From NCBI GenBank assembly GCA_022571985.1, contig JACZWU010000002.1, positions 360,136-424,135 of the forward strand: 64,000 bases of DNA, read 5' to 3'. This stretch comes from Candidatus Zixiibacteriota bacterium (GTDB lineage: Bacteria; Zixibacteria; MSB-5A5; GN15; FEB-12). Under the pieces are notes generated by a model that saw only the letters and a list, made by a program, of their open reading frames with translations, was not told where the DNA came from and ran no database searches. Both the position numbers and the translations under genes were made by a program. Of this stretch, positions 47,731-64,000 are shown piece by piece (position 1 is the stretch's first letter; each line of letters starts with the position of its first letter).

Positions 47731-47846
47731 TTTCTCATTCAGTTAGTATATTATATTTTGATTAGAGTCTACTTCTTTTCAGAATAAAGTATATACTTAT
47801 TTTGAAGAATTGGTTACAATTTTTCTTTTCTTGGAGATAAAGGCGA

Positions 47847-49136
47847 ATGGCAGACAGGGCTGAAAGAGAATTAGAACGGCTGCGGAGTGCAGTCTCAGAA
47901 TTATCGAGTCTCAACGAAATAGCATCTGCGATAAATTCTTCGATGTCCGTTGATAAGATTACTTCGATTATCGTAGACAAGTGTCTGAAACATACTAATG
48001 CCTCCCAGGGTGCTATTTTTATGCTGGAAGAGGATCAGCCCGAAGGAGAAGGCAGCCAATTTACGACATTTGTGAGGAAGATGCAGGACTCTCGTGAAGA
48101 TATTCCATTTCACTTAAATATGAGTCTGGCTGGCTGGATGCTAAAAAATAAGCGTATTTTGATAATTAATGAGGACGACGGCGAGCATCCGTTATCCGGT
48201 CTTGATTTCGCGAAACTGGGAATCCGGTCGATCGTTGCTTCGCCTCTGTTATCTAAAAATGGTCTCATTGGCGTTCTGGCAATTTTTAATAAACGCGGCG
48301 AAGAAGGATTCACTTCAAATGACCAGCGATTTTTGGGAATAGTAGGCACTCAATGTGCGCAGGCTTTAGAGGGCGCACGCCTTTACGTTCAAGAGAGAAA
48401 ACTAATAGCAATAAATGAAGAACTGGGCATTGCTAAATCTATCCAGGAAGGGTTTTTGCCGAAGCCCGAATTGATCAAACATATCAAACATTGCTATGGC
48501 ATGAATATTCCGGCCAAGGAAATTGGCGGTGATTTTTTTGACATCGTTGACAGAGGCAACGACGAAGTGTTTCTTTCAATCGGCGACGTAGTAGGTAAAG
48601 GCGTACCGGCTGCCCTTTTGATGGCCAACACTCAGGCGGTACTGCGCTCTCATCTTCATAATAAAACGAAGCTGGACTTAGCCGATTTGGCGGTCAATCT
48701 TAATCATCTGGTTTGTCAGTTCACCAACCCGGGGCAGTTTATAACCGGCCTGTTCGGTGTTCTGGATAATAAAAATAAGAAATTCAGTTTTGTTAACGCC
48801 GGTCATCACATGCCCCTAATTGCTAACAACGGAAAGATTATAAAGCAGACAATGGAGCCGGATTTGGTCTTCGGAGTGATGCAGGGCATAGGCTTTAAAT
48901 TGAATGAGATAGACGTACCGGAGAATTCAACAATGTTGCTGTATACTGACGGAATAAGCGAAGCTCAAAATGAGACGGACGAGCAGTTTGGCGACGACCG
49001 CATTGATAAGCTGCTGCTTGAATCGGCAGATAATCCGGCAGACAAAATTTGTGAAAAGTTCTTAGATGAGCTCAATATTTTCAAAGGGAAAGCGGACCAG
49101 GCTGACGATATTACAATAGTAGTTGCCAAGACTTAA
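47847..49136 (+). CDS. GAF domain + PP2C/SpoIIE-family Ser/Thr phosphatase
   Basis: The GAF-like N-terminal half, then PAKEIGGDFFDIV, GDVVGKGVPAALLMA, LLLYTDGISEAQN and ADDITIVV. Confidence 0.85.
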   Translation: MADRAERELERLRSAVSELSSLNEIASAINSSMSVDKITSIIVDKCLKHTNASQGAIFMLEEDQPEGEGSQFTTFVRKMQDSREDIPFHLNMSLAGWMLKNKRILIINEDDGEHPLSGLDFAKLGIRSIVASPLLSKNGLIGVLAIFNKRGEEGFTSNDQRFLGIVGTQCAQALEGARLYVQERKLIAINEELGIAKSIQEGFLPKPELIKHIKHCYGMNIPAKEIGGDFFDIVDRGNDEVFLSIGDVVGKGVPAALLMANTQAVLRSHLHNKTKLDLADLAVNLNHLVCQFTNPGQFITGLFGVLDNKNKKFSFVNAGHHMPLIANNGKIIKQTMEPDLVFGVMQGIGFKLNEIDVPENSTMLLYTDGISEAQNETDEQFGDDRIDKLLLESADNPADKICEKFLDELNIFKGKADQADDITIVVAKT

Positions 49137-49325
49137 GGCAATTTATCTCTAAATTCCATTTCGCCCAGTATTTCAGCAGTTTTTATTAAGATAATTCAGT
49201 CTAAACGAACGCCCAATTTGTGAGTGCTTGTCTCATAATGTTGAGTTTTCAGACAATAACTTTTTCAGGGAATTTGTCGATAATCATATGAGAAACGTTT
49301 AACAGCCGTGGAATTACAGAATAAA

Positions 49326-50780
49326 ATGAATGAATTTACATATGACCTTATCGTAATAGGCTCCGGACCCGCCGGACAAAGAGCCGCCATTCAGGCTGCA
49401 AAATTAGGTAAAAAAATAGTCTTAATTGAAATGAAAAACGTGGTCGGCGGCGTCTGCACAAATACCGGCACTATTCCCAGTAAGACTTTAAGGGAAGCAG
49501 TGATGCATCTTTCCGGTTATCGCGAAAGAAGCATTTACGGTTCTTCGTATGCTGTCAAGCAAGCAGTTACTATGGAAGACCTGCTCTTTAGAACAAATCA
49601 GGTGACAAGGCATGAAATAGACATAATCAAACATCAGCTTTCTCGCAACGGTGTTGAGCTAATTTATGCTAAAGCTGCTCTTATTGATTCACACATGGTT
49701 GCGGCCAGTTCGGATACTGGAGAAGGTCAAAGAATCTTATCAACAGACAAAATTGTCATTGCTACCGGAACCAGAGCAACCAAGGTCCCAAGCATTCCGT
49801 TTAACGGACAAAACGTATTTACCAGCGACGATATACTTACCATAAAAAGCGTGCCCAAATCGCTGGTGGTGGTCGGTGCCGGTGTGATTGGCTGTGAGTA
49901 CGCCTGTATGTTTGCCACTCTGGGTGTCAGGGTGACGTTAATAGACAAGAGAGAGCGCTTGCTGCCATTTGTTGATAATGAAATCTCAGATACGCTGGCT
50001 TATCAGCTCAGGCAGCAGCGAGTGATTTTAAGGCTGGGCGAAGAAGTCAGCAATCTTAAAGTGGAAAAGACAGAAACTGGTTCTATAGCTTGTTTAAGTT
50101 TAAAAAGCGGCAAAAAAGTTGCAGCCGAGGCAGTTCTCTATAGTATTGGTCGCAGCGGCAATACTGAAGATCTCAATCTCGAAGCAGTCGGTTTGTCTGC
50201 AGACGACAGAGGCAGAATAAAAGTCAATAACAGCTATCAAACTGAAGTTCCAAATATCTACGCGGTTGGAGATGTAATAGGCTTTCCCAGTCTCGCTTCG
50301 ACTTCGATGGAGCAGGGAAGAATAGCTGCCTGCAACGCTTTCGACCACCCGTATATTTCCATGCCGGAATTTTTCCCCTACGGAATTTATACTATTCCTG
50401 AAATTTCTATGGTGGGGCAGACCGAAGAAGAACTTACCCAAGCAGGCGTGCCTTACGAGATGGGACGTGCGGCCTACCGAGAAATCGCGCGAGGCCAGAT
50501 TATTGGCGACCAGACCGGCATCCTCAAAATTTTATTTCACGCCGAAACACGTAAGCTCTTAGGTGTTCATATTTTGGGAGAAGGCGCCAGCGAGTTAGTT
50601 CATATTGGCCAGGCCGTGATGTCTCACAACGGGTCGATAGACTATTTCATAAATTCTGTATTTAACTTTCCGACTTTAGCCGAATGTTACAAGACTGCAG
50701 CCTTTGACGGTATCAACAGACTGGGTCATTCTCCGAGTGTTGCTGAAGTTGACGAGCAGCCGGTAGCAGAAACTACTTAG
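49326..50780 (+). CDS. sthA: Soluble pyridine nucleotide transhydrogenase (SthA/UdhA-type flavoprotein)
   Basis: YDLIVIGSGPAGQRAA and GGVCTNTGTIPSKTLRE. The second redox Cys is replaced by Thr, as in SthA. VVVGAGVIGCEYA and the C-terminal dimerisation domain are present. I moved the start to ATG 49326 (MNEFTYD). Confidence 0.7.
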   Translation: MNEFTYDLIVIGSGPAGQRAAIQAAKLGKKIVLIEMKNVVGGVCTNTGTIPSKTLREAVMHLSGYRERSIYGSSYAVKQAVTMEDLLFRTNQVTRHEIDIIKHQLSRNGVELIYAKAALIDSHMVAASSDTGEGQRILSTDKIVIATGTRATKVPSIPFNGQNVFTSDDILTIKSVPKSLVVVGAGVIGCEYACMFATLGVRVTLIDKRERLLPFVDNEISDTLAYQLRQQRVILRLGEEVSNLKVEKTETGSIACLSLKSGKKVAAEAVLYSIGRSGNTEDLNLEAVGLSADDRGRIKVNNSYQTEVPNIYAVGDVIGFPSLASTSMEQGRIAACNAFDHPYISMPEFFPYGIYTIPEISMVGQTEEELTQAGVPYEMGRAAYREIARGQIIGDQTGILKILFHAETRKLLGVHILGEGASELVHIGQAVMSHNGSIDYFINSVFNFPTLAECYKTAAFDGINRLGHSPSVAEVDEQPVAETT

Positions 50781-50844
50781 CCTCAAAGCAGATTAAACTA
50801 ATAGGATTAATCCCAATATTTGAAACTGATCGTTTGGTCAAGTT

Positions 50845-53139
50845 CTAAGTAGATTTGTGAAGTCCGAGTATATTCAGCAGTGACATTAGTTTGGAGTCTT
50901 CTCGCAAATTCTTGTAGTACGGCATGCAGGTCATATAAATTAATTCGTAGTCATGTTTTCTAAGTGCGGTTTCGAAATAAGGGAGTGCAATTTCACTCTT
51001 TCCAAGGTCAAAATTTAGAAGTCCGAGATAAGAAGGAGGTATCTCCTTCTCATTTGCCAATTTCTCGACTATTCTCAAAGCTGACTCTGTTTTGTCCTGT
51101 TGGTCTAGCAAAGCATACAGATGTCCCCACATAGTTACAGCCCAGGGACTGTCTTCTGTTAATTGACGGGCTTTCTTAAGTAGGTCTTGTGCTTTCTCCA
51201 ATTTTCCCTGATCGAAATAGACGAATGCAAGAAATATGAAGGTTGCCTCATTTTCACTGCCCTGTTCAACAGCCTTTTCGAGTAGAGCTGCGCTTTTTTC
51301 GAGTTGGCCTTTCTTATGACAAAATATACTATACATGGTCATAGCTATTTCTGAAAGCGGGTCAAGCTCTAAAGCACGCTTGAAACAGATTTCAGATTCA
51401 ATGTCCTCGTTTAAGAACATCAACAATTCGCCATACCATTGATGGGCTATTGGATAGCTGGGGGATAGCTTTTTAGCTTTCTCAAACCAATCCCGGGCAG
51501 TTTCCCAATCCCAGTCTGCGTTAGTTGCAATGCCGCCCAGGGTGGCATAGGCCTCACCTAGATCTGGGTCTATTTCCAGAGCCTTTAGGGCTTCTCTTAT
51601 TGCTCTGGCGATAGAGGGAAGAGCTGGCTCAAATTCATAGGCATATTGGATAAAATATGTATCAGCAAGACCGGCGACTGCCAAAGCATAACCGGGATCA
51701 ATTTTAATCGCCGCCTGAAAATTTTCCAGAGCCTGTCTTAAAGAACTCTTTGTGCGCTGGTTCAAAAAGTATCGGCCTTTCAGATACAGTTCATACGCTT
51801 CTAGATTGTCGCTGCGACGCCGTGACCTGACTTCAGTCTGATTGGCATTCAACTGAATTTTCAAACTCTCCACAATCTGGTGAGTTATTTCATCCTGAAT
51901 GGCAAAGACATCCTTAAACTCTCGGTCGTATCTTTCAGACCAGAGATGATAGCCATCTGATACTTTTATTAACTGGGCAGTTACTCTAATCTGTCCGCCG
52001 GCTCTTTGCACGCTGCCCTCCAGCAGATAGCTGACTCCAAGTTTACGTCCGATAGAGCGAATATCTTCATTTTTCCCCTTAAAAGCAAAAGCGGAGGTTC
52101 TTGCCACTACTTTCAGGACGGCAATCTGAGAGAGGTCATTGATTATATCTTCAGCAATGCCGTCACAGAAGAATTCCTGCTCCGGGCTGGCGCTTAGATT
52201 TGCAAACGGAAGTACTGCTATTGATGTCTGCTTTGCTGCTTTTCCTCTGGCAGCTAATTCTCCTGACAAGCTGTTTAGACAATCTGCTAATTCGGCTTTG
52301 GTTGCTGAAGCATCTTTCGGTCGTCTATCGCGGTCTTTTTCCAAAAGTGCAGAAATGATTCTGCCAAAACAGTCTGGCATGTCAGGAACATGATTTAGAA
52401 CAGGCTCCGGTGAATAATTCATTATAGCATTAATTGTCGCTGCCTGGTTTTCCTTTTTAAACGGAGACAGACCGCTGACCATTTCATATAGTACTACTCC
52501 TAAAGAAAACAGATCCGATCTATTATCTAAGTCCTTAGCTTCTACTTGCTCGGGAGACATATAGGCGATTGTGCCTTGGGTTGTGCCGGTTTTAGTCAAA
52601 TCCGATTCATCTAAAATAGAAGCTATGCCAAAGTCCAGAATGCGTGGTCTCTGGTTGTTATCCATGACAATATTGGCAGGCTTGAGATCCCGGTGGACTA
52701 TCTTATGCCTGTGGATTTCAGCCAGCGCCTCACATAGCTGGCAGGCGATTTCCAGAGTTTGCTTTGATGAAATAGGCCGCTCTTCAATTAAGTCAGCAAT
52801 AGTTTTTCCTTCCAAATATTCCATCGCAAAAAAGGGACGATCCATAAACAGTCCTACCTCGAAGATTGTAACTATATTCGGATGGTTAAGTCTGGCAGCG
52901 GCGCGGGCTTCACGTTCAAAGCGATTTTTAAGCTCTTCATTTGAGGAATGTATGGAAGAGAGGAATTTCAGGGCGACTTTTCGTTCAAGAGCTTTGTCGT
53001 TTGCCAGATATACTTCACCCATGCCACCTTGGCCGAGCCGCTTGATTATTTCGTAATGTGAAACCAGCGTCCCTTCTGTCAAAATGACATGGTCTTTGGT
53101 TTTTTCTTCTTCGCTGCCGCGCTTGCTCATAAGCTCCAA
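50845..53139 (-). CDS. Cytoplasmic Ser/Thr protein kinase + TolB-N-like domain + TPR repeats
   Basis: GQGGMGEVYLA, HRDLKPANIVM, DFGIA and YMSPEQ. These are followed by IAVLPFANLSASPEQEFFCDGIAEDIINDLSQI...YLLEGSVQRAGGQIRVTAQLI and a TPR array. Confidence 0.85.
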   Translation of the reverse strand: MELMSKRGSEEEKTKDHVILTEGTLVSHYEIIKRLGQGGMGEVYLANDKALERKVALKFLSSIHSSNEELKNRFEREARAAARLNHPNIVTIFEVGLFMDRPFFAMEYLEGKTIADLIEERPISSKQTLEIACQLCEALAEIHRHKIVHRDLKPANIVMDNNQRPRILDFGIASILDESDLTKTGTTQGTIAYMSPEQVEAKDLDNRSDLFSLGVVLYEMVSGLSPFKKENQAATINAIMNYSPEPVLNHVPDMPDCFGRIISALLEKDRDRRPKDASATKAELADCLNSLSGELAARGKAAKQTSIAVLPFANLSASPEQEFFCDGIAEDIINDLSQIAVLKVVARTSAFAFKGKNEDIRSIGRKLGVSYLLEGSVQRAGGQIRVTAQLIKVSDGYHLWSERYDREFKDVFAIQDEITHQIVESLKIQLNANQTEVRSRRRSDNLEAYELYLKGRYFLNQRTKSSLRQALENFQAAIKIDPGYALAVAGLADTYFIQYAYEFEPALPSIARAIREALKALEIDPDLGEAYATLGGIATNADWDWETARDWFEKAKKLSPSYPIAHQWYGELLMFLNEDIESEICFKRALELDPLSEIAMTMYSIFCHKKGQLEKSAALLEKAVEQGSENEATFIFLAFVYFDQGKLEKAQDLLKKARQLTEDSPWAVTMWGHLYALLDQQDKTESALRIVEKLANEKEIPPSYLGLLNFDLGKSEIALPYFETALRKHDYELIYMTCMPYYKNLREDSKLMSLLNILGLHKST

Positions 53140-53299: not shown

Positions 53300-54355
53300 C
53301 TAGCCGGCCACAGGTACGCCCACATCAACGGCTAAGGCCTTAATGATTCCTCTGGGGATATTGGAAAGTGTTGTAACTTTGACGGAGGCTCCCAAATCCT
53401 CTGCCGCTTTGGGCATGCCGTAAACAATACAGGATGATTGATGCTCTGATATAGTATGTGCGCCACCTTTGCGCATGGCCAGCAGACCTTTGGCTCCGTC
53501 GGTTCCCATCCCGGTCAATAGTACGCCCACCGAGTTTCTACCTACTTCCTGGGCAACAGAGTTAAAAAGGATATCTACGGCTGGTTTTTGATGGTGAACG
53601 GGAGGTCCGTCTTTGAGACGTATCTTAAACTGCGACCCGCTTCGCTTCAGGAGCATATGAATTCCTCCGGGAGCAATCAGGGCTGTGCCGGTACGGACTA
53701 TATCGCCGTTTTTGGCTTCGCGTACTTCCATCTGGCAAACCTCGTTTAGCCGCTCAGCAAAAGAAGCAGTAAAGGATTTTGGCATATGCTGACAGATGAC
53801 TGTACCCGAAGTATTTTTGGGCAGGCCGGTAAGAACTTTTTCGATGGCAGTAGTGCCTCCTGTCGAAGCGCCGATGGCAAGAATACGGTGAGATGTTTCA
53901 ATCTGTTTGAGGTGATCAGACAGATCTTCGATGGACGAGCTTTCTTCAACTATTGTAGTTTTTAAATGGGCAGAAGCAGCCGCCCTGATAGCTCTGGCCA
54001 TATGCTTTTCGTTATCCGGAGTTGACATAGTTGAACCGGGTTTAGGAATAACTTCGATGGCTCCCAGTCTTAGAGCCCGCAAAGCAGCTTTGCTGTCTTT
54101 TGGAGTTAAAGAGCTGATAATGATTACAGGCAATGGGTGGTGTTTCATAAGCTTGCTTAAGAAACTTAGACCATCCATGCGCGGCATCTCAATATCAAGT
54201 GTCAAAACGTCCGGCTTAAGTGTCAGGATCTTGTCTCTGGCAACGTATGGGTCCATCGCCGTCCCGACAACTTTTATGTCTGAAAACTGTGATAGTTTTT
54301 CCGTCAAAACTTTTCTGACCAACGCCGAGTCGTCAACAATTAATACACGTATCAC
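53300..54355 (-). CDS. cheB: Chemotaxis response regulator protein-glutamate methylesterase CheB
   Basis: The REC domain (RVLIVDDSALVRK...DVLTLDIEMPRMDG) plus the CheB_methylest domain (ILAIGASTGGT, GVLLTGMGTDGA, SCIVYGMPKAA). Confidence 0.92.
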   Translation of the reverse strand: MIRVLIVDDSALVRKVLTEKLSQFSDIKVVGTAMDPYVARDKILTLKPDVLTLDIEMPRMDGLSFLSKLMKHHPLPVIIISSLTPKDSKAALRALRLGAIEVIPKPGSTMSTPDNEKHMARAIRAAASAHLKTTIVEESSSIEDLSDHLKQIETSHRILAIGASTGGTTAIEKVLTGLPKNTSGTVICQHMPKSFTASFAERLNEVCQMEVREAKNGDIVRTGTALIAPGGIHMLLKRSGSQFKIRLKDGPPVHHQKPAVDILFNSVAQEVGRNSVGVLLTGMGTDGAKGLLAMRKGGAHTISEHQSSCIVYGMPKAAEDLGASVKVTTLSNIPRGIIKALAVDVGVPVAG

Positions 54356-54357
54356 TG

Positions 54358-54843
54358 CTATACACCCTCAAGGATTTTGTCTGCAGTTTGGTCAACAAAT
54401 AAATTAATTTCGGCTCTGCCATCTTCAAGGCCAAGTTTTGCATCTGCCAAAAGATCCAGACCTGCCCCTTCTTGAGACTTTGAAACGGTATCCAAAGATT
54501 GGGGACTGGTCAGATGAAAAATCTCTTTTGAGCCGGCAATTCTGGGCAGGACATTGCCACAAATTACGTTGGCTATCTCACCGAGCGCATCCAGCGATAA
54601 AATATCAGACGATATTTCTTCACTGCCTGAAATATTCGAGGCCAGCTTCTCAGTCACAGCTCCATATACAGATACTTCTAATCTGCCCGTAAAGGGTCCA
54701 TCAAAAGTTATCATAACAGAAGCTTCACTCTTGGCTTCTCTTTGCTCTTTAGTGATCTCTTCATTGAGCAGCATCATGCCCAGATCTTCAAAAGTCTGAA
54801 CCGCTGCCTCCATCAAACTCTTCCGGCATTTTTCCTTCATCAT
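54358..54843 (-). CDS. cheX: CheX/CheC-like chemotaxis phosphatase
   Basis: The ~150-aa size and LDALGEIANVICGNVL (compare T. maritima CheX SAIGELGNMTAGKL as I recall it). It lies between cheY and cheB. The annotated start overlaps cheY by 56 nt, so the true start may be an internal Met. Confidence 0.55.
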   Translation of the reverse strand: MMKEKCRKSLMEAAVQTFEDLGMMLLNEEITKEQREAKSEASVMITFDGPFTGRLEVSVYGAVTEKLASNISGSEEISSDILSLDALGEIANVICGNVLPRIAGSKEIFHLTSPQSLDTVSKSQEGAGLDLLADAKLGLEDGRAEINLFVDQTADKILEGV

Positions 54844-55228
54844 GCGTTACTCCAGTTAATTCTTTTATGGTTTCTCTAAGTGTTGCTGGGTTGAAAGGTT
54901 TATGAACGAAACCTGCTCCCTTTTTCTGAAGCATTTCGATACGGGACTCGCTGCTTTCCGTAGAAACTACAATAATCGGCAGGTCTTTGGTCTGTTCATT
55001 CCCGCGAATCTCCTCTATCATCTCTTCGCCGTTCATGACAGGCATATTAATGTCTATCAAAGCCAGATCAATCCATTCCTGCTCCAGCACCTCCAACCCT
55101 TCCTGACCGTTTCCTGCTTCGCTGATTCTGCCTATCGGCAGACCACTAAGCTGCAGGGAACGGATAATCATTTTGCGCATTACCGCGCTATCATCAACTA
55201 CTAATACGTTAAGTGCCAAACTGTCCAC
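54788..55228 (-). CDS. cheY: CheY-like single-domain response regulator
   Basis: VLVVDDSAVMRKMI...DLALIDINMPVMNG...PIIVVSTE...GFVHKPFNPATL. Confidence 0.88.
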   Translation of the reverse strand: MDSLALNVLVVDDSAVMRKMIIRSLQLSGLPIGRISEAGNGQEGLEVLEQEWIDLALIDINMPVMNGEEMIEEIRGNEQTKDLPIIVVSTESSESRIEMLQKKGAGFVHKPFNPATLRETIKELTGVTHDEGKMPEEFDGGSGSDF

Positions 55229-55264: not shown

Positions 55265-55753
55265 TTATAAATTTGTTGTTTTACCTTTGCTTGATATTTT
55301 TACTCCACCGTCGCTCATTACAAGTGTCATAGTTCTGGGGTCTGTGCCGCCAACGTCGTGTTTATTTATCAAGACGCCGTTTTTCCAGAGAATTTTTCTT
55401 AAGGCTGTAAAATTCCTTCTGCCTATTTGAAACATATCTTTGTCAGGTTCCGTTTTAGTACTGGCTCCTCCGGCTACTTTTACTATCAAACGTTGTTTTT
55501 TTGCTCCCAGTTTATAGCAGGCTTTAAACAATAACGGCGTGCCGGCATCGACAAAAAATGTCGGTTTTTTGCCATTCTTTGCGTCTTTATCATCCTGGCT
55601 GGGCAAAAGAGCATGCAACATGCCGCCCACATTTGCTACCGGGTCATATAAAGTTATGCCAAGGCAGCTGCCCAGAGCGTGAGTGATTATCACGTCCTCC
55701 GGGCTTTTTGTAACGGCCATTTCACCAATGCCAATTGTCAATTGCATTTTCAA
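55265..55753 (-). CDS. cheD: Chemoreceptor glutamine deamidase CheD
   Basis: ALGSCLGITLYDPVANVGGMLHALLP contains the catalytic Cys context. The 162-aa size and operon position fit. Confidence 0.88.
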   Translation of the reverse strand: MKMQLTIGIGEMAVTKSPEDVIITHALGSCLGITLYDPVANVGGMLHALLPSQDDKDAKNGKKPTFFVDAGTPLLFKACYKLGAKKQRLIVKVAGGASTKTEPDKDMFQIGRRNFTALRKILWKNGVLINKHDVGGTDPRTMTLVMSDGGVKISSKGKTTNL

Positions 55754-55774: not shown

Positions 55775-56650
55775 TTATTGTGGTTTGCAATAAATAGCCG
55801 GCTGCACATAGTTAAGTTCTCCCGAATTCCTACTAAGACTTTCTGAAAGACCAATAAACAAAAAACCCCCTGGTTTCAATAGCTTTCCGTAGCGGTGGAC
55901 CAAATTATCTCTAAGGTCATGCCTGAAATAAATCATTACGTTTTTACAGAGAATAAAGTCGAATGGTCCTTTCATGGGCCATTCTGAAATCAAATTTAAC
56001 CTGGCAACGCGAACGTGTTGTTTTAAATCATCTTTTACTCTGTACTTTGTACGCGATTCAGGGGTGACCACTTTGGTGAAATACTTATGCATATATGTGG
56101 CCGGAAGGCTCTCCATCGTTTCTTCTGCGTACACGCCCAGACGGGCTCTATGAACCATCTCTACTGAAATATCGGTGGCCAGCATCTGGAAATCTTCTTT
56201 GGCCATATAGCGGTATTTTTCTTTAAGCAGCATGGTAAGTGAATATGGCTCCTCGCCTGATGAACAACCTGCGCTCCAGACTTTAAGCGGTTTTTGTTTA
56301 AGGTCGCGCTGTGCTAAAATATTTTTATTGATGAAGTCAAAGTGTTCCTCTTCACGGAAAAAGCTGGTCTTGTTGGTGGTCAGCAAATCGATCATTATCC
56401 GCAGCTCATTTTGGGTGCGGTCATCATTGACGTACTTTACATACTGGCGATAGCTTTTCATGCCGAGCTTTTTTATGCGGCGAATAAGTCTGGCCTGTAT
56501 TAATGGCTTTTTATTCTGAGTCAGATTTATTCCGGCTTTTTCGAGAATTAACTCGGAAATTGAGTTGAACTCGAGTTCCGATAGTTCGAAGGTTTTGCCA
56601 GCCAATTCCAGTAGTGACTTCATTTCAGCGACTTGTGACACTATTTTCAC
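55775..56650 (-). CDS. cheR: Chemotaxis protein methyltransferase CheR
   Basis: The CheR N-terminal helical domain (FNSISELILEKAGINLTQNKKPLIQARL) and the SAM-binding motif VWSAGCSSGEEPYSL. Confidence 0.92.
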   Translation of the reverse strand: MKIVSQVAEMKSLLELAGKTFELSELEFNSISELILEKAGINLTQNKKPLIQARLIRRIKKLGMKSYRQYVKYVNDDRTQNELRIMIDLLTTNKTSFFREEEHFDFINKNILAQRDLKQKPLKVWSAGCSSGEEPYSLTMLLKEKYRYMAKEDFQMLATDISVEMVHRARLGVYAEETMESLPATYMHKYFTKVVTPESRTKYRVKDDLKQHVRVARLNLISEWPMKGPFDFILCKNVMIYFRHDLRDNLVHRYGKLLKPGGFLFIGLSESLSRNSGELNYVQPAIYCKPQ

Positions 56651-56782: not shown

Positions 56783-59644
56783 TTAGAACTCTTTCAAAGC
56801 AGGTTCATTCTCCTCTTCGTTAAGTGGGAACCCTTTTTCAAGTCTATTTCCGTCAGCCTGCAGTTCAGCACCTGCATGACCGGCATTGGGTTCAGCGGCT
56901 GCGATAGTCGCTTTATTAGCCTTGACGGCTTTCTTGGCGACCAGTTGGTGAATCCTCCCTTTGAGGCCTGGGGTGACACCCGTGACTGGCCCATCATGGA
57001 ATCTTGACTGACGCCGAGCACCGTCATTGAAGACGCTTTGTTGCTCCTGCGATTTTACACCGTCGACTAATCTGACCATATCAAAGACGACTTCCTGCAT
57101 CTTCTGGGCTTGAGCTGCCAGCTCTTCACTGGCTGCAGAGGACTCTTCAGCGTTAGCAGCATTCTGCTGTGTTATTTCAGATACCATGGCCGTAGCAGTA
57201 TTGACCTGGTCGATACCCTGAGCCTGTTCTTTACTGGCAGCAGTAACTTCAGCGACTAAGACAGATACTTTCTGAATGCCGTCACTGACTTCTTTGAAGA
57301 GGGTGGACAGTTCTTCGGATGACTTGACGCCGTCTTCGGCGTTCTTTTGTGAACCTTCAATCAAATTGCTGGTGTCTTTGGCCGCCTCAGAGGATCTCAT
57401 AGCCAGATTCCTGACTTCTTCGGCAACTACTGCAAATCCTTTGCCTGCTTCACCGGCACGGGCAGCTTCAACTGCAGCGTTTAACGCTAACAGGTTAGTC
57501 TGGAAAGCAATCTCATCAATAACCTTAATTATTTTGGCTGTTTCATCTGACGACTGCTTAATCTCTAACATTGCTCCCGACATCTGATCCATTGCAGTCT
57601 TGACCTTGGCTGCCTTGGAATTGGCTTCTGAGGCCAGTGTATTAGCTTGCTCGGCGTTTTCGGCATTCTGACGGGTGGTGCCGGCCATTTCTTCCATCGA
57701 AGATGATGTCTCTTCGAGCGAAGATGACTGCTCCGAAGCTCCTTTGGCCAGGGACTGACTGGCGCTGGCTACCTGATCGGAGGCTGAAGAAATTTCTTCA
57801 GTACCTGAGGTCAATTCATTTATCGCCCGTTTCAAAGGACGAGACAGCGAGCGGGCAATTAAGACCGCAAGAATCAGGCCAAATGACACGGCGATTACAG
57901 AGAGAACTGTCAGTACGAAAATTGCCCTGTGCTCATCTGCTTCAGCTTTATGAGCGGCAGCATTGGTGGAATTCAACAGTTCCTCAAAAAGCGTTTCAAT
58001 CTCAAGATTTAGCTTATCTTCAGCTTCTTCAATGTGCTCTTCGAGAATCCGGGCACGTGAAAATTGACCAGCATTGATCATTGAGAATACTTGTTCCGCA
58101 AGCCATTCAAATTCCGTATGATGAGCTTGAATTTTCACAAGTTGAGCATAAACAGACGTCAGTTCTTCGGCTGTTTCCTCATCATGAGCCGGTAATTCTT
58201 TAATCAATTCTTCAACGCCATTGATTTCTTCTGTTACCTTGTGGCTTAGTCTTTCAAACTCTTCGACAGACTCTTCATATTTCTCTTGAGCATGAGTACC
58301 TGTTTCTTCACCAAATCTAAAGGCTCTTTCAAGGAAAATCGACTGCTCCAATTGATGTACTTCAATGGCGCTAATTGCTTTGGTCAGAGGCACCTTTTCT
58401 TCAGCTATAGTTTCAATCTCTGCACCAAGTTGGTTAAAGGTGATGACAGAGTAAGCTGCGACGATAGTCAAAAGTATAATAATAACACCAAACCCTGTAA
58501 TAAGCTTGGCACCTAAAGTTCTCTTAAAGCTGGTCTCACCAAATGCATCCTTGACCCTGGCTTGGAAAAGCACCAAAGTAATTATTAATACCAGGGTTAT
58601 TAATACAAAGAGATAGGTCCAAAAATTTCCGGCGCCGGTACTATCAACTTTTTTCTCAAAATGACTTAAGGAGCCTTCGGCGCTTTTGGCTTTCCGCAAA
58701 AGAGAGGCTATAACTGCTTCGTCTTCAGCAGAAGCTGCACCGTGGCCACCACTGGAAACACCGTGAGTACTGCTCTGTGAAGAAGCAGTGGCGCCGTGCG
58801 ATGCTTCGCTAACGGGCGATGTTCCGCTACCGTGTGATCCTCCCACACTTGCTCTGGAACCGCTATGACTGACGCCCGCCATGGCGTTCATTTCTCTCAT
58901 CGAGTTCGACTCGACATTGGCCAGAATCTGTGTGACTTTGTGCTCTGGCAGCCAGCGCACTGAACCTGTGGCGACATCATAAATCGCCCCAACGACTTTT
59001 AGCTTGCCACTGTTTACGAGGTTACGCGTAGCCGGGCTGCGCATGAACAGATCCTCGGTACCCTGCCAGACGTTTTGCACGATGGCATAGGGAATGATGT
59101 CATCACCATGGACACCGGGATGATCACTCATTGCTTGCCGGACTGCCGGTTCAATATTATCCACCAGCGGTGGAATATTCAATTCAAGAGGGTGACCCGT
59201 ACCAAGTACGGCATGAGTCACGGCAGTAACTGCGCCGCACTGAGTATGCCCGAGTATTACGAGCACAGGCGTATTGACATGGGCAATACCATACTCGATG
59301 GAGCCGACCTCGTCAACATCACAAACGTTACCCGCAACCCGGATAACGAATATGTCCATAATGCCGGCATCGAATAAGCGCTCCACAGGCACGCGGGAGT
59401 CAGAACAGGTGATGACCGTAGCGTAGGCGTGATTACCTTGATTCTCTCTGCCGGCCTGCGCCAAGCGGAGAGCATTTGTATGCGGGTGCTTACTGACGCC
59501 CGCAAGAAATCTTTCATTGCCCTTCTTGAGCAAGTTTAGACACTTGCTCGGACTGGGCTGTTTAGCGAAAAGTGTCATACTTGACACCAGTGCCATCAGC
59601 ACAGTCAGGACAACGAATTTGGTTAATGTTTTCATTTGCTTCAT
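56783..59644 (-). CDS. Methyl-accepting chemotaxis protein with N-terminal periplasmic beta-carbonic-anhydrase domain and a second periplasmic four-helix-bundle domain
   Basis: Signal peptide. The beta-CA motifs are [30 protein letters not shown] and [13 protein letters not shown]...[14 protein letters not shown] His/Ser/Gly-rich linker follows, then a TM hairpin, a ~190-aa helical domain and a third TM. The MCP hairpin tip is [38 protein letters not shown]. Confidence 0.85.
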
Positions 59645-59680: not shown

Positions 59681-60691
59681 TTAAAATCCGGCAACTACTT
59701 GCAGGATGTTCGTGTTGTCATTGCTGTCTTTATAAAATGAAGATGCGAACCTGATTTCTACACTTTCTTCAATAATCCAGCCTACTCCGGCGGTGAAACG
59801 GTTGTTAATCTCTTCACCTTCCCTTTTGACTGATCCATAGCGCCCAACCAGGAACATCTTATCAAAACTATATAATGATTGAAAATAATATCCGTTTTGC
59901 TTTTCTTCATCATAAGAGCGATTATAAAGATGGTTAATATATTCGCCCTTAAGACTGAGTCTGTCATTCAATTCGTATTGGAAATCAGCGCCAAAGAGAG
60001 ACATTTCGTTGCCTCCGGATGCATTGATGCCTATTGCCCAGGAGCCGCCGACTTCAAGATTTTCGACAGGAGTCACTCCCAGACGACCTCCAATAGCGTT
60101 AGCAGGAGTCGTGTTCATTTCTTCACCAACTGCCACTCCCAATGATAAAGCCAGGGCAGTGTCGGTTGTTGAATAAGATGAAGCGAAGCCATTTACCCAG
60201 AAGACCACCAGGTTGCCTGATTTAGATTCGGCATTGAATCTGAATCCAAAGTCAACCCAACTGCCGTGGGTCTGAAATACTACAAGCGGGATGTCAGTAA
60301 GCCTGCGTATTGGAGACGGATTAACCTGGTAGTCAGCTCCGAAGGGAACGTCGAACATACCTCCGTAAACCGTTGCTGAAGTTACAAAATCTTCATTATT
60401 ATTGTGAAGATTTAGCCCGACTTCCGCAGCTGCCAGCTGAAAATTGCCGTTATTACTGTTATAGGCAGTTACCACCTGGCCGGATGACTTCTCAGAGAAC
60501 TGTCTGAAAAAAGAAATCTCAGCCTGATTCAAGGCGAAATTGGTGGCATCAGCTTTGCCGTTACTGTAAATACCAATTACATCAAAGAAACCACTGATTA
60601 CCAGATCATCTGCTGCGGTCACTTCTGCAGGCACAAAAGATGTTACTGCGAGTAACATTAGTGTAAACAGTATCGTAAAAGGTTTTCTCAT
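59681..60691 (-). CDS. Porin-like outer-membrane beta-barrel protein
   Basis: Signal peptide MRKPFTILFTLMLLAVTSFVPAEVTA. Amphipathic beta-strand periodicity and a C-terminal ...LQVVAGF. I set the start at ATG 60691, inside the conserved 25-nt motif. Confidence 0.65.
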   Translation of the reverse strand: MRKPFTILFTLMLLAVTSFVPAEVTAADDLVISGFFDVIGIYSNGKADATNFALNQAEISFFRQFSEKSSGQVVTAYNSNNGNFQLAAAEVGLNLHNNNEDFVTSATVYGGMFDVPFGADYQVNPSPIRRLTDIPLVVFQTHGSWVDFGFRFNAESKSGNLVVFWVNGFASSYSTTDTALALSLGVAVGEEMNTTPANAIGGRLGVTPVENLEVGGSWAIGINASGGNEMSLFGADFQYELNDRLSLKGEYINHLYNRSYDEEKQNGYYFQSLYSFDKMFLVGRYGSVKREGEEINNRFTAGVGWIIEESVEIRFASSFYKDSNDNTNILQVVAGF

Positions 60692-60732: not shown

Positions 60733-62226
60733 CTAGAATTTGAATAGCGTGTTCAAAAACAGCATACTGTTAGTGTCTTTGGCATCATCCTCGTAGCTGG
60801 TGATTCGGTAATTGAGAGCCACCTTAAAACTGTACACAGGCTTGCTTTCAATTCCGAAAACAGTAAGTGTTTCACTATTATTATCCTTGCCCTTATCAGG
60901 GTCATACAGATCCAGACGACCGATAATAGCGAGATTTTTTAGAATCACATTCTTCGACAACCTATACAGATAGTATGCTCCAAAAATTGACAGTCCTTGT
61001 TTCTTTACTGCAGATTTTGAGGCACCTTTTCCGAGAGTTAAGAAGTTCAGGTCAAAGCCAAAATCGACAGTATGATTCCAGACGAATGCTCCGCCCACGG
61101 AAATCAGCTGTCGTTTCCAATCGGAACCCGTCACGGTTGTAACCGTTGTATCCCACGGCGTCATCGATGTGTCAGTTGTCACTATGTCATCAAGCGACTC
61201 ATTCTGGGTACCGGAATAGAACTGCATCAGAAAAGAAGTATTCTTGAAGTCATGCGAGCCTTTGAAGGGCGTCAGCAGGGTAACAAAACTAAAGTCCTTT
61301 CGGCTGTTGTGTTCTTGAACATGTGTGTAGCTCGTGCCGTTCAGCATTGCCAGCTTGACAAAACCGAACTCTGCCTTTGGTCCGAAACCAACGGTTGTTG
61401 AGACACCCAGATCTGATGACGTTAGAAAGTGATGTAGATCACCGATGGTTGCTGCCGCATAACGCCTGCCCCACAGCTTGTTCATATAATCGATATACTC
61501 TGTCGGCTGAAGACCGAAACGGAGCCCCACTATGCCTTTGGTAAAGGCCGGCTTCCAGTCGAAATAGGCGTACTTGAGTATGATGTTGTACTTATCGTCG
61601 ATTGTCTTGAGGTCTGTGGTAACTCGAATGCTTGCGTAATCGGAAATTTTTGACCGTACGGTCAAATAGGCACGGGACAGCGCGAATTCGCTATGGCTGC
61701 CTTCGTTGTTCGAAATATTCGTGAAAACGTGACTGTACAATTTACCATTGACCGTCGTCTTTGAATGTTTGTCGCTGCTGTGGTGTGTTTTGGCAGGCTT
61801 ATGGTGGCCAGCTGCAGGAGAACCAGCATGATCGAGCGACGCGTATTGCGTACCGTTCTTATCAAAATATTTCTCAAGTTCCACTACCTGCAGGTGGAGT
61901 ACCGACAGTTCATGGATGACGTCAGCCAGCTGTTTGTCAGTTACGCCGCCTGTCACATGCCCTTTGGCAGATTTTTGATTTTTGGCAATAGCCGACTTCA
62001 ATTCGGCTAACTGCCGACTACGTATTGTTGCTTCCTGCTTGATCAGATTCTTGAGGTTGTTCTCAATTTTATCAACCGCCTCAAGTAGTGCATCAAAATC
62101 CTGAGCAATCGCAGATTGCCCCAAGGACATGACCACCAACAAAGTTGTCACGAGCATCATGATTAAATTACTTTTCATGACTTTACCTCTCCCTTTTTCT
62201 TGTGAAATTGATTTTCTTGTCATCAT
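60733..62226 (-). CDS. Porin-like outer-membrane protein with N-terminal coiled coil and His-rich tract
   Basis: The coiled coil is LEAVDKIENNLKNLIKQEATIRSRQLAELK. The His-rich tract is AAGHHKPAKTHHSSDKHSK. The barrel part is FALSRAYLTVRSKISDYASIRVTTDL...KYAYFDWKP, with a C-terminal LNTLFKF. Start choices are 62226 (the ATG inside the conserved motif), 62178 (GGAGAGG upstream) or 62268 (ORF track). Confidence 0.6.
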   Translation of the reverse strand: MMTRKSISQEKGRGKVMKSNLIMMLVTTLLVVMSLGQSAIAQDFDALLEAVDKIENNLKNLIKQEATIRSRQLAELKSAIAKNQKSAKGHVTGGVTDKQLADVIHELSVLHLQVVELEKYFDKNGTQYASLDHAGSPAAGHHKPAKTHHSSDKHSKTTVNGKLYSHVFTNISNNEGSHSEFALSRAYLTVRSKISDYASIRVTTDLKTIDDKYNIILKYAYFDWKPAFTKGIVGLRFGLQPTEYIDYMNKLWGRRYAAATIGDLHHFLTSSDLGVSTTVGFGPKAEFGFVKLAMLNGTSYTHVQEHNSRKDFSFVTLLTPFKGSHDFKNTSFLMQFYSGTQNESLDDIVTTDTSMTPWDTTVTTVTGSDWKRQLISVGGAFVWNHTVDFGFDLNFLTLGKGASKSAVKKQGLSIFGAYYLYRLSKNVILKNLAIIGRLDLYDPDKGKDNNSETLTVFGIESKPVYSFKVALNYRITSYEDDAKDTNSMLFLNTLFKF

Positions 62227-62289: not shown

Positions 62290-62904
62290 TTAAGCCGGAA
62301 CCGGTTCGGCTGTTTGTTCAAGATCGCCCTCGGCTTTTTGTTTAGAATCGGCCTCGGCTGTTTGTTTAAGATCGCCCAGGCCAGAAACGTCCACCTCACC
62401 CAGGACCTTGTCTATATCCAGCAGTATCTTTACTTCATCCTTGACTTTACCCATTCCCATGATAAAATCAGTATTGATACCGCCACCAAAGCTCGGTGCG
62501 GCTTCGATATCGGTCGTCTTAATCTCCAGCACTTCGGAGACAGAATCGACGAGAATGCCCATCTGGATAGGTGCACCCTGCATGACCACTTCGACCACAA
62601 TGATGCATGTCCTTTCTGTGTCTTCAATAGTCTCCATTCCAAATTTAGTTCTCAGTTCCAGAACCGGGATCACCTTTCCCCTGAGGTTGATCACACCCCG
62701 GATGTAGTGTGGTGTCTGGGGGACCTGGGTTATGTCCATCAATCCGATGATTTCCCGGACGCTCAAGATTTGCAGCCCGTACTCTTCTTGACCGAGAAAG
62801 AACGAAAGGAACTTACTTCCTTTGCCGTCTTCGCTCTGGCCTGTTGCACTGCCCTGGCTTTTCGCAAAATCCAGAGCTTTTGATACTTTTTCCTGCGTTG
62901 TCAT
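62290..62904 (-). CDS. cheW: Chemotaxis coupling protein CheW
   Basis: FLSFFLGQEEYGLQILSVREIIGLMDITQVPQTPHYIRGVINLRGKVIPVLELRTKFG. Confidence 0.9.
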   Translation of the reverse strand: MTTQEKVSKALDFAKSQGSATGQSEDGKGSKFLSFFLGQEEYGLQILSVREIIGLMDITQVPQTPHYIRGVINLRGKVIPVLELRTKFGMETIEDTERTCIIVVEVVMQGAPIQMGILVDSVSEVLEIKTTDIEAAPSFGGGINTDFIMGMGKVKDEVKILLDIDKVLGEVDVSGLGDLKQTAEADSKQKAEGDLEQTAEPVPA

Positions 62905-62918
62905 TAAGACCTCCTAAG

Positions 62919-64000
62919 TTATTGTTTAACAGTTTCTGTTTTCTGTCCATTACTGCTCTTATTAGCAATAATACTCTGTTCAATTTTTGTTGTCCTAAAC
63001 GACTGGCGAGCCATTGTCGCCAGTTCTATAGTATCCAGAATCAGGCCGACATGTCCGTCACCCAGAATAGCCCCGCCCGATACGCCGGGAACTTTGCCCA
63101 AGCCGTCGCTGATGGGCTTGGCTACTACCTGCTGCTGGTTAAGCAGTTCGTCTACCATAAGGGCGCATGGGTTTTTTCCATCACCAACAATTACCAGCAG
63201 GCTGTCAGTCATGACTTCTATCGCCCCTTTTATGCCAAAGATTTCATAAAGGCGGTAAACCGGAATAACCTGACCATGCAGCAATACCATTTCACCTCTT
63301 CCGGCAACTGTCGAAATCTGTTCAGCATTCGGTCTGAAACTTCTATTAATATTGATTGTCGGAATAATGAAATGTTCTTTGCCGACTTTGACCAGCATGC
63401 CATCGGTGATTGCCATTGTCAGAGGCAATTGCATGATAAACTCTGTTCCTTTGCCGAACTCAGAAGCAATATTAATTCTTCCACCCAAGGCGTCTATGCC
63501 TCTCTTGACAACATCCATGCCGACGCCCCTGCCGGAAAGATCAGTTACGTTTTCAACGGTAGAGAAACCAGGTTTTAGAATAAGCTCGAATATTTCACTG
63601 TCTGTCATGCCCTTATCAGACTCTATCAGACTTTTCTCGATTGCTTTTTCGACAATACGCTGGCGATTAAGTCCGGCGCCGTCGTCTTCAATTTTTATAA
63701 GAACATTACTACCGGAGCGCAGAGCTGCCAGTCGAATTGTTCCCTGAGCAGGTTTGTTTGCTTTGCTTCTCACTTCTGCTGATTCGATACCGTGGTCAAC
63801 AGCGTTTCTGACCATATGAACCAGAGGGTCAGAGATAATATCAACCATATTACGATCGATCTCTTCGTCTTCACCCTGTGTAATTAACTGTACGCTTTTG
63901 CCACACTTCTGGGCAGCATCGCGAACTAATCTGGCCATTTTCTGGAAAGTCGCTTTTAGAGGAACCATTCTCATCGACATACTAAGGTCCTGAAGCTCCC
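62919..64000 (-). CDS. cheA: Chemotaxis histidine kinase CheA (C-terminal part; the 5' end lies beyond the window)
   Basis: The frame stays open upstream of the track's Met to the window edge (..ELQDLSMSMRMVPL). Motifs include RMVPLKATFQKMARLVRDAA, DPLVHMVRNAVDHGIE, DDGAGLN and GRGVGMDVV. A C-terminal CheW-like domain is present. Confidence 0.9.
   Translation of the reverse strand, partial: ELQDLSMSMRMVPLKATFQKMARLVRDAAQKCGKSVQLITQGEDEEIDRNMVDIISDPLVHMVRNAVDHGIESAEVRSKANKPAQGTIRLAALRSGSNVLIKIEDDGAGLNRQRIVEKAIEKSLIESDKGMTDSEIFELILKPGFSTVENVTDLSGRGVGMDVVKRGIDALGGRINIASEFGKGTEFIMQLPLTMAITDGMLVKVGKEHFIIPTININRSFRPNAEQISTVAGRGEMVLLHGQVIPVYRLYEIFGIKGAIEVMTDSLLVIVGDGKNPCALMVDELLNQQQVVAKPISDGLGKVPGVSGGAILGDGHVGLILDTIELATMARQSFRTTKIEQSIIANKSSNGQKTETVKQ

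Follow-up and report, generated by a model that had tools for sequence, protein, structure and literature searches.

A carbonic anhydrase-chemoreceptor fusion in a Zixibacteria che operon, a candidate enzyme-coupled receptor for the CO2/bicarbonate/proton system

The window analyzed here (a 64,000-nt stretch of contig JACZWU010000002.1, from a Candidatus Zixiibacteriota bacterium) contains a chemotaxis operon whose receptor gene joins a beta-class carbonic anhydrase (CA) to a methyl-accepting chemotaxis protein (MCP); we refer to this gene and its product as CA-MCP. The genes of the operon share the (-) strand in the order cheA, cheW, ORF511, ORF341, CA-MCP, cheR, cheD, cheY, cheX, cheB, and no second MCP signalling domain was found within the 64-kb window. 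A preliminary description of this DNA, made from the sequence alone, had listed the same che genes (cheA, W, R, D, Y, X and B) with CA-MCP as their sole receptor, and our analysis confirmed both points; however, it had overlooked the two genes for secreted proteins that lie between cheW and the receptor gene. The coordinates of all these features are collected in Table 1.

Our Pfam search matched residues 75-229 of CA-MCP to Pro_CA (PF00484; E=5.9e-34; 118 bits against a cut-off of 25.7) over profile positions 1-156 of 156, and residues 669-825 to MCPsignal (PF00015; E=2.4e-45; 154.9 bits against a cut-off of 34.6). An NCBIfam search agreed with Pfam on the two domains; the subfamily PRK15219 scored 113.6 bits, under its cut-off of 221. 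The CA motifs were located in a 30-residue stretch at 77-106, at GHTQCGAV (132-139) and in an 11-residue stretch at 219-229, and the hairpin-tip motif of MCPs is present within a 38-residue stretch at 711-748. CA-MCP thus belongs to the beta-CA and MCP families by profile thresholds and by motifs, and every motif first quoted in support of a beta-CA-MCP fusion with zinc ligands and a catalytic dyad was found. The closest solved structure is the Mycobacterium tuberculosis beta-CA Rv3588c (2a5v/1ym3; E=2e-26; aligned residues 31-227).

Table 1. Features of CA-MCP and of its operon in the window (TM, transmembrane segment; 4HB, four-helix bundle; AF2, AlphaFold2; aa, amino acids)
Feature	Position	Strand	Basis or remark
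CA-MCP open reading frame (ORF), 953 aa	56783..59644	(-)	likely start Met4 at 59635, giving 950 aa
Signal peptide or membrane anchor, residues 1-28 (hydrophobic core 9-27)	59561..59644	(-)	hydropathy
Beta-class CA domain, residues 30-235	58940..59557	(-)	Zn ligands C80, H133, C136; catalytic dyad D82/R84
Conserved post-CA tail, residues 236-257 (...VESN..R.MNAMAG)	58874..58939	(-)	alignment
Disordered His/Ser/Gly-rich tether, residues 258-337	58634..58873	(-)	alignment, composition
TM1, residues 338-361 (hydropathy 341-359), outside to inside	58562..58633	(-)	hydropathy
Short basic cytoplasmic loop, residues 362-381, K/R-rich	58502..58561	(-)	positive-inside rule
TM2, residues 382-403 (hydropathy 385-403), inside to outside	58436..58501	(-)	hydropathy
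Periplasmic 4HB sensor domain, residues 404-574	57923..58435	(-)	AF2, Foldseek
TM3, residues 575-598 (hydropathy 578-596), outside to inside	57851..57922	(-)	hydropathy
Cytoplasmic MCP signalling hairpin, residues 599-870	57035..57850	(-)	Pfam, NCBIfam
Poorly conserved C-terminal tail, residues 871-953	56786..57034	(-)	alignment
cheA, C-terminal part	62919..64000	(-)	runs past the window end
cheW	62290..62904	(-)	
ORF511, 481 aa from Met31	60733..62178	(-)	outer-membrane porin-type barrel
ORF341, 336 aa from Met6	59681..60691	(-)	secreted protein of unknown family ending in Phe
cheR	55775..56650	(-)	
cheD	55265..55753	(-)	
cheY-like response regulator	54788..55228	(-)	
cheX	54358..54843	(-)	
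cheB	53300..54355	(-)	

The sole Shine-Dalgarno-like motif abuts the first ATG of the reading frame and lies 9 nt before the second; since Met4 is also the start in an independent gene call, the real product is probably 950 aa in length. The CA domain is periplasmic whether the N-terminal signal is cleaved or stays as an anchor. Basic residues follow TM3 and are abundant in the loop between TM1 and TM2, and by the positive-inside rule they place the CA domain and the second sensor-side domain in the periplasm and the signalling hairpin in the cytoplasm, so that hydropathy and charge agree with the topology first proposed (a signal, a TM hairpin, a third TM and both sensor-side domains outside). 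The post-CA tail corresponds to the C-terminus of stand-alone secreted CAs, and the tether contains a short amphipathic helix of 15 residues immediately before TM1. No HAMP domain (PF00672) was matched by Pfam in the window protein even at E <= 0.1; several homologues have one. The C-terminus (...NEPALKEF) is without the xWxxF pentapeptide that tethers CheR and CheB, the Trp being missing. In a 40-sequence alignment in which conservation was taken as the mean top-residue frequency by region, this C-terminal tail reached 0.17 with 56% gaps.

The CA-MCP fusion is genuine. An artefact, whether an assembly join, a frameshift or a lost stop between neighbouring CA and MCP genes, might be suspected because the fusion point is the natural C-terminus of stand-alone CAs. 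However, an independent Logan assembly (L088, run SRR12883922) made with a second assembler agrees with the window at 100% identity along 10,595 bp (10.6 kb), the whole gene included. A full-length search with CA-MCP gave a family sample of the 120 best-scoring database clusters (clusters here being 50%-identity clusters), and a motif count found CA and MCP combined in 108 of them, from several phyla and including an isolate genome. TM1, the extra segment that a consistent topology requires, is also conserved, and the artefact reading is effectively refuted. Of the points raised at the outset, an assembly join is contradicted by the second assembly, and the survey of other genomes has come out in favour of the fusion.

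Source labels in the family include Desulfopila aestuarii DSM 18488 (a cultured isolate), Desulfobacula, Phycisphaerales and other Planctomycetota, Zixibacteria, Eisenbacteria and Chitinivibrionales, and many of the hosts are sulfur-cycling anaerobes such as Desulfobacterota; a partial protein 94% identical to CA-MCP carries the label of a Zixibacteria metagenome-assembled genome (MAG). The layout is shared: signal peptide, CA, linker, TM, short loop, TM, helical periplasmic domain, TM and MCP, with TM1 and the loop kept throughout. A scan of species-representative genomes keyed on the universal MCP tip motif returned nearly all generic MCPs and is not a census; it also gave a CA-less MCP with the same 4HB (L010) and a free CA (L009), and an unlinked CA beside L010 was looked for and not found. 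Our full-text literature search, whose coverage excludes most subscription journals, found no published CA-chemoreceptor fusion, and the initial statement that no characterized chemoreceptor has a CA input domain held in the literature searched. Database annotations already pair the two domains in places, e.g., as 'methyl-accepting chemotaxis protein/carbonic anhydrase'.

The CA domain is the most highly conserved region of the family (0.77, as compared with 0.59 for the signalling domain, 0.46 for the second periplasmic domain and 0.26 for the linker). None of C80, D82, R84, H133 and C136 varies among the 120 family proteins, and, save for one R84H, the same catalytic residues are kept in a set of 120 secreted stand-alone CAs with 65-79% identity to the CA domain. 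These stand-alone enzymes are approximately 260 aa in length, and members of the same clade are found in non-chemotaxis contexts. A comparison of the 120 family proteins with the 120 stand-alone CAs revealed no position that separates fused from free enzymes, and the two groups were interleaved in a rough neighbour-joining tree. Because all of the zinc ligands are invariant, a role of the domain as a zinc sensor, one of the possibilities raised in the preliminary description, appears unlikely.

The linker starts exactly where stand-alone CAs end (...RAMNAMAxGGH). It ranges from 41 to 116 aa with 26% gaps, approximately 50% of it is G/S/T/A/P, and His is enriched 2-3x; a linker of such low complexity, poor conservation and varying length is not plausible as a relay for conformational changes. 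The CA domain itself is repeated in some receptors, with two copies in 18 clusters and three in 2, both zinc motifs being present in every copy. The tandem-CA receptors include P0121 and P0127; secreted proteins made of two or three CA repeats alone also exist (e.g., P0186, Maridesulfovibrio frigidus). The floppy tether, the intact CA copies in series and the lack of fusion-specific residues argue against mechanical coupling and for catalysis. These sequence features suggest that the CA domain of CA-MCP is probably a working enzyme on a tether and not an allosteric input. The proposal that the CA fold serves as the input domain of the receptor is therefore not upheld, given the disordered linker, the one to three intact CA copies, the retained catalytic residues and the canonical 4HB next to it.

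That second periplasmic domain was modelled with AF2 (residues 400-580, 29 aligned homologues), which predicted four long helices (pLDDT 91.4, pTM 0.81). The top Foldseek matches of the model were the 4HB sensors of chemoreceptors and kinases, namely Vc1313, Adeh_2942, MCP2201, Tar and PcaY_PP, with query-normalised TM-scores of approximately 0.5-0.7. By sequence, the window domain had no Pfam match (4HB_MCP_1, TarH) and no significant NCBIfam match, and a profile of the domain matched no solved structure; weak Pfam 4HB matches were obtained for the relatives P0349, P0255, P0246 and P0123. By its predicted fold, then, the domain is a canonical 4HB sensor module lying outside the Pfam 4HB models. 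The helical, 4HB-like domain anticipated from the sequence was thus borne out in its fold, although it spans approximately 170 aa and not approximately 190; likewise, of the profile matches anticipated, Pro_CA and MCPsignal appeared but 4HB_MCP did not.

An exhaustive profile search put the 4HB family at 1,722 cluster representatives; among the top 150 matches, the bundle mostly occupies residues ~30-220 of ordinary two-TM MCPs without CA, and CA-less MCP clusters with this 4HB number more than 100. The modelled segment has a net charge of -27 and contains 9 His; the family has a mean net charge of -18 to -21 and contains 5-9 His, with or without CA. An acidic, His-rich bundle was considered as a signature of CA fusion and rejected, since plain members of the 4HB family are equally acidic. 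Conserved residues across the family are G407, P419, Q431, L432, Q434, E439, R440, R443, F463, H509 and E571. From helix geometry alone, Q431, Q434, F463 and H509 would lie at a similar height in the bundle, and E439, R440 and R443 would lie at the membrane-distal end of helix 1, the region where Tar binds aspartate.

Comparison with the syntenic locus L001 suggested that the sensor domain is exchangeable. The two loci share 89-93% nucleotide identity on either side of the sensor segment; however, no DNA similarity was found between them over the stretch encoding residues 296-618, i.e., the linker end, TM1, loop, TM2, bundle and TM3 (window 57788-58758 versus L001 10878-12133). The L001 protein (P0123) keeps the CA at 93% amino acid identity and has a helical domain of approximately 290 aa with a weak 4HB_MCP_1 match. 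Judged from these alignments, the difference looks like a cassette replacement inside the receptor gene in which the CA was kept. In the family at large, the lengths of the second periplasmic domain form two classes, 150-200 aa and 250-300 aa.

In seven further clusters of the same 4HB family, the bundle starts near or beyond residue 400 and no beta-CA is present. All seven (P0255, P0271, P0290, P0301, P0312, P0349 and P0350) carry an alpha-class CA (PF00194) at residues ~40-255, with E-values of 1e-37 to 1e-46. Their layout matches that of the beta fusions: signal peptide, CA, His-rich low-complexity linker, TM1, basic loop, TM2, 4HB, TM and MCP. The catalytic residues are complete in five of these seven clusters, as in the P0301 sequence QFHFH...EVHFVH...SLTTPPCSEG. 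Alpha-fusion bundles are nearest to those of plain MCPs (41-60% identity) and not to those of the beta fusions, which indicates that alpha and beta CAs were recruited independently. A metagenome scan with the N-terminal part of an alpha-CA fusion returned free alpha-CAs only.

Alpha and beta CAs have unrelated folds and have in common only the reaction CO2 + H2O <-> HCO3- + H+. Since two unrelated CA folds occupy the same position in the same 4HB-MCP family, the reaction itself appears to have been selected, and the stimulus should lie in the CO2/HCO3-/H+ system. Among the sequence comparisons, this convergence is the strongest evidence that the CA reaction was under selection, and the assignment of the stimulus class to CO2/HCO3-/H+ may be regarded as well supported. 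The direct sensing of CO2, HCO3- or pH put forward earlier is thus retained as regards the class of stimulus, but not as regards the CA as the direct sensor. The convergence also bears on the substrate. The domain might instead hydrolyze another compound handled by the beta-CA superfamily, for example carbonyl sulfide or CS2 (yielding H2S and CO2), in which case the receptor would signal the presence of this compound or of sulfide; a weak match to carbonyl sulfide hydrolase in the solved-structure search (3vqj, E=1.6e-4) and the many sulfur-cycling anaerobes among the hosts, e.g., Desulfobacterota, are in line with this. We consider it very improbable, as the best matches are bona fide CAs (E=2e-26), the active-site motifs are those of canonical beta-CAs, and the convergent use of alpha-CAs points to CO2 hydration, the reaction common to both classes.

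On balance, we think it somewhat probable that CA-MCP is an enzyme-coupled chemoreceptor for the CO2/bicarbonate/proton system. In this tethered-enzyme model, the complete secreted beta-CA, which is exported to the periplasm and held by its disordered His-rich tether and TM1 beside a two-TM 4HB MCP, would catalyze CO2 + H2O <-> HCO3- + H+ in the periplasm around the sensor without any mechanical signalling, keeping CO2, bicarbonate and protons at equilibrium near the sensor. Uncatalyzed hydration of CO2 takes tens of seconds, whereas the temporal comparison made in chemotaxis takes approximately 1 s; catalysis would thus let an ion-sensing bundle report CO2 in real time. An inert, membrane-permeant gas would be turned into an ion signal fast enough for a swimming cell. 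The acidic, His-containing 4HB would detect HCO3- or H+ and pass the signal through TM3 and the signalling hairpin to CheA, with adaptation by CheR, CheB and CheD. As to which product is sensed, the Arg residues conserved at the helix 1 tip speak for an oxyanion; protons are favoured by the bundle's extreme acidity and His content, together with the His-rich tether.

An alternative is that the CA is itself the ligand-binding input, in which CO2, HCO3- or some other anion binds to the zinc site, or pH drives a switch between open and closed or oligomeric states, and the change is relayed through TM1 or through docking on the 4HB, in the manner of a periplasmic binding protein attached covalently. 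An invariant zinc site would also be expected for a binding role, and the nearest solved homologue, Rv3588c, is reported to change conformation and oligomeric state with pH. The geometry is compatible as well, MCPs being dimers and beta-CAs obligate dimers; TM1 and the loop are kept family-wide; and two of the alpha-CA fusions have a substituted zinc ligand, as in pseudo-enzyme sensors. Against this stands a disordered tether of variable length and poor conservation, which cannot transmit force. Two unrelated folds would each need a docking surface on the same bundle, two or three intact CAs in tandem make no sense for one-to-one coupling, no residues specific to fused CAs or to CA-fused bundles were found, and the sensor cassette was swapped while the CA stayed constant. 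Taken together, these observations make a directly sensing CA unlikely.

Eight genomic contexts of CA-MCP genes were examined. A full che operon was present in four (the window, L001, L002 and L007), the gene adjoined cheW and other MCP genes in two (L003 and L006), and in the remaining two (L004 and L005) it was an orphan away from che genes. In the window and in L001, CA-MCP is the sole receptor of a dedicated che operon; in the independent assembly L088, two response-regulator genes lie upstream of cheA. In D. aestuarii DSM 18488 (L002, FRFE01000002.1, 9085-13675), a separate gene for a 260-aa secreted CA lies directly upstream of the gene for a CA-CA-MCP, and the che operon that holds both also contains three further MCP genes.

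These contexts bear on whether the CA takes part in recognizing the stimulus at all. The 4HB might sense an unrelated ligand while the CA conditions the environment, e.g., by buffering pH around the array, or the receptor might merely anchor the CA at the membrane or pole for carbon metabolism. The two orphan genes among the eight fit such a role, as do stand-alone secreted CAs of the same clade in non-chemotaxis contexts and the wide occurrence of the 4HB family without CA. Moreover, periplasmic CO2/bicarbonate buffering is a recognized strategy (PMC9600550). Even so, we regard a CA outside stimulus recognition as improbable: the independent recruitment of alpha and beta CAs by one 4HB-MCP family is hard to explain without a functional link, CA-MCP is the sole receptor of its che operon in two loci, Desulfopila has an extra CA gene within its che operon, and a simple membrane anchor would need no full MCP.

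Several observations weigh against the tethered-enzyme model itself. Every functional step in it is one that we infer from sequence, and a free periplasmic CA would equilibrate the compartment equally well, so that the benefit of tethering is unexplained. The two size classes of the sensor domain and the swap of the bundle between close relatives are unexpected if one product-binding pocket is essential. No residue was found that separates CA-fused from plain 4HBs, and the 4HB family is mostly CA-less; hence nothing shows that the window bundle binds bicarbonate or senses pH. The first zinc ligand is replaced in two of the seven alpha fusions (His to Gln in P0255 and His to Asp in P0271), which may mean, as far as these sequences go, that full catalysis is not always required. 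In addition, three-TM MCPs exist that have the same 4HB and only a tail in place of the CA. Such tail-only MCPs (P0242-P0246, P0263, P0277, P0300 and others) have a signal peptide and a His-enriched periplasmic tail of 60-120 aa before TM1, and they could be either the ancestral scaffold or products of CA loss.

The two secreted proteins encoded between cheW and CA-MCP were also characterized. ORF511 has no significant Pfam, NCBIfam or PDB sequence match. Besides a signal peptide, an AF2 model predicted two long helices in the periplasm (24-70 and 81-111), a His-rich disordered segment and a beta-barrel of approximately 18 strands (pLDDT ~90), for which the top fold match was the anion-specific porin OprP, followed by OmpT, OprO, OmpF, the coiled-coil porin DcaP, Omp32 and OmpM1. 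The family has 34 invariant residues, eight of them Arg or Lys, and is essentially restricted to Zixibacteria MAGs, with relatives in L001, L088, L089 and L090. In every context examined, the long coiled-coil form is encoded immediately upstream of an MCP gene, with or without CA, and the short form is not, which suggests that long-form ORF511 and an MCP constitute an undescribed porin-chemoreceptor gene pair. A link specific to porin and CA was considered and rejected, as homologues of the long form also stand upstream of MCP genes without CA.

ORF341, encoded between ORF511 and CA-MCP, carries a signal peptide and shares 91% identity with the corresponding protein of L001. It had no significant Pfam, NCBIfam or PDB sequence match, and hhalign revealed no kinship with the porins (probability 2%); ORF341 might itself form a second outer-membrane barrel. 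At other CA-MCP loci, a gene for a secreted coiled-coil protein lies beside cheW and MCP genes: the product in L003 (5547-7367) is a 606-aa porin of the OprB family whose N-terminal part is a long coiled coil, and that in L006 (7582-8961) is an unannotated protein of 459 aa whose N-terminus is weakly like that of ORF511.

Immediately downstream of cheB, at 45334-53139, the window contains a signalling cluster that is conserved in L001, in which two Ser/Thr kinases with TPR repeats flank a GAF-SpoIIE (PP2C-type) phosphatase and a pyridine nucleotide-disulfide oxidoreductase. The region from 16753 to 45176 encodes a series of very large secreted or surface proteins of 670-1,615 aa with FG-GAP, thrombospondin type 3, fibronectin type III, BACON, CarboxypepD_reg and dockerin domains; one protein of 793 aa in this region had no Pfam match.

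In its receptor half, CA-MCP resembles the canonical 4HB receptors (Escherichia coli Tar and Tsr; Vc1313, MCP2201 and PcaY_PP), which have a periplasmic 4HB between two TMs, an MCP hairpin tip and CheA/W/R/B as partners; it differs from them in the added N-terminal secreted CA, disordered tether and third TM, in the absence of a Pfam 4HB_MCP_1 or TarH match and of a detected HAMP, and in the unusual acidity of its bundle (-27). Compared with the stand-alone secreted beta-CAs of Desulfobacterota and other anaerobes (solved homologue Rv3588c), with which it shares 65-79% identity, the catalytic residues and the C-terminal tail, CA-MCP continues into a tether, TM1 and a full chemoreceptor, and its CA is sometimes in tandem. 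The closest systems in function are those that use periplasmic binding proteins (MBP-Tar, RBP/GBP-Trg and DppA-Tap), in which the bundle alone does not recognize the stimulus and the receptor depends on another protein of the periplasm to respond. In CA-MCP, however, the partner is covalently attached and is an enzyme with an intact active site, which is proposed to make the ligand and not to dock.

CA domains accompany receptors elsewhere. The receptor protein tyrosine phosphatases gamma and zeta have an alpha-CA-like extracellular domain without zinc ligands, a protein-binding pseudo-enzyme; they are likewise TM receptors with an extracellular CA fold, but the catalytic site of CA-MCP is strictly conserved. 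Animals sense CO2 by means of extracellular Car4 on sour-taste cells and of CAII together with guanylyl cyclase-D in olfactory neurons. In Chlamydomonas, the flagellar beta-CA CAH6 has been proposed to act in bicarbonate chemotaxis (PMC7215798). The logic of these systems would be the same, a CA beside a receptor turning CO2 into bicarbonate or protons, although there the enzyme and receptor are separate and the signalling is unrelated, whereas CA-MCP is one polypeptide feeding CheA. The only bicarbonate-responsive bacterial chemoreceptor that we met in the literature searched is TlpA of Helicobacter pylori, an MCP with a dCache_1 domain that is reported to respond to bicarbonate (PMC8406319). 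TlpA is likewise a TM MCP, implicated in bicarbonate and acid responses; it has no enzyme module and is unrelated to CA-MCP in sequence and architecture.

A more far-reaching interpretation, which we put forward tentatively and hold to be possible, though short of probable, is that one-polypeptide CO2 receptors have been built repeatedly from a working alpha or beta CA in one to three copies and an acidic 4HB MCP. The conserved His-rich tether, whose pKa is near that of the CO2/HCO3- couple, would serve in them as a proton relay or as a titratable partner of the strongly acidic bundle, so that CO2 would be read as local pH, and in Zixibacteria the coiled-coil porin encoded in the operon would complete a module spanning the envelope. 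If this is true, CA-MCP would be the first enzyme-coupled chemoreceptor and would provide the first molecular mechanism for bacterial CO2 taxis; we found no molecular mechanism for bacterial navigation of CO2 gradients in the literature searched. Gradients of CO2 are a major feature of sediments, biofilms, syntrophic consortia and hosts. A test of the hypothesis is already within reach, since the family has more than 100 members, one of them in the isolate D. aestuarii DSM 18488, whose locus is a ready experimental system, and since the architecture is modular enough for Tar chimeras; it might also yield a genetically encoded CO2 biosensor. Known chemoreceptors act through direct binding or through binding proteins, and a receptor that makes its own ligand would add a new principle to bacterial chemoreception. 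Such a receptor would parallel the CA-assisted CO2 sensing that has evolved in animals and algae, and it would assign a function to a large unannotated 4HB family.

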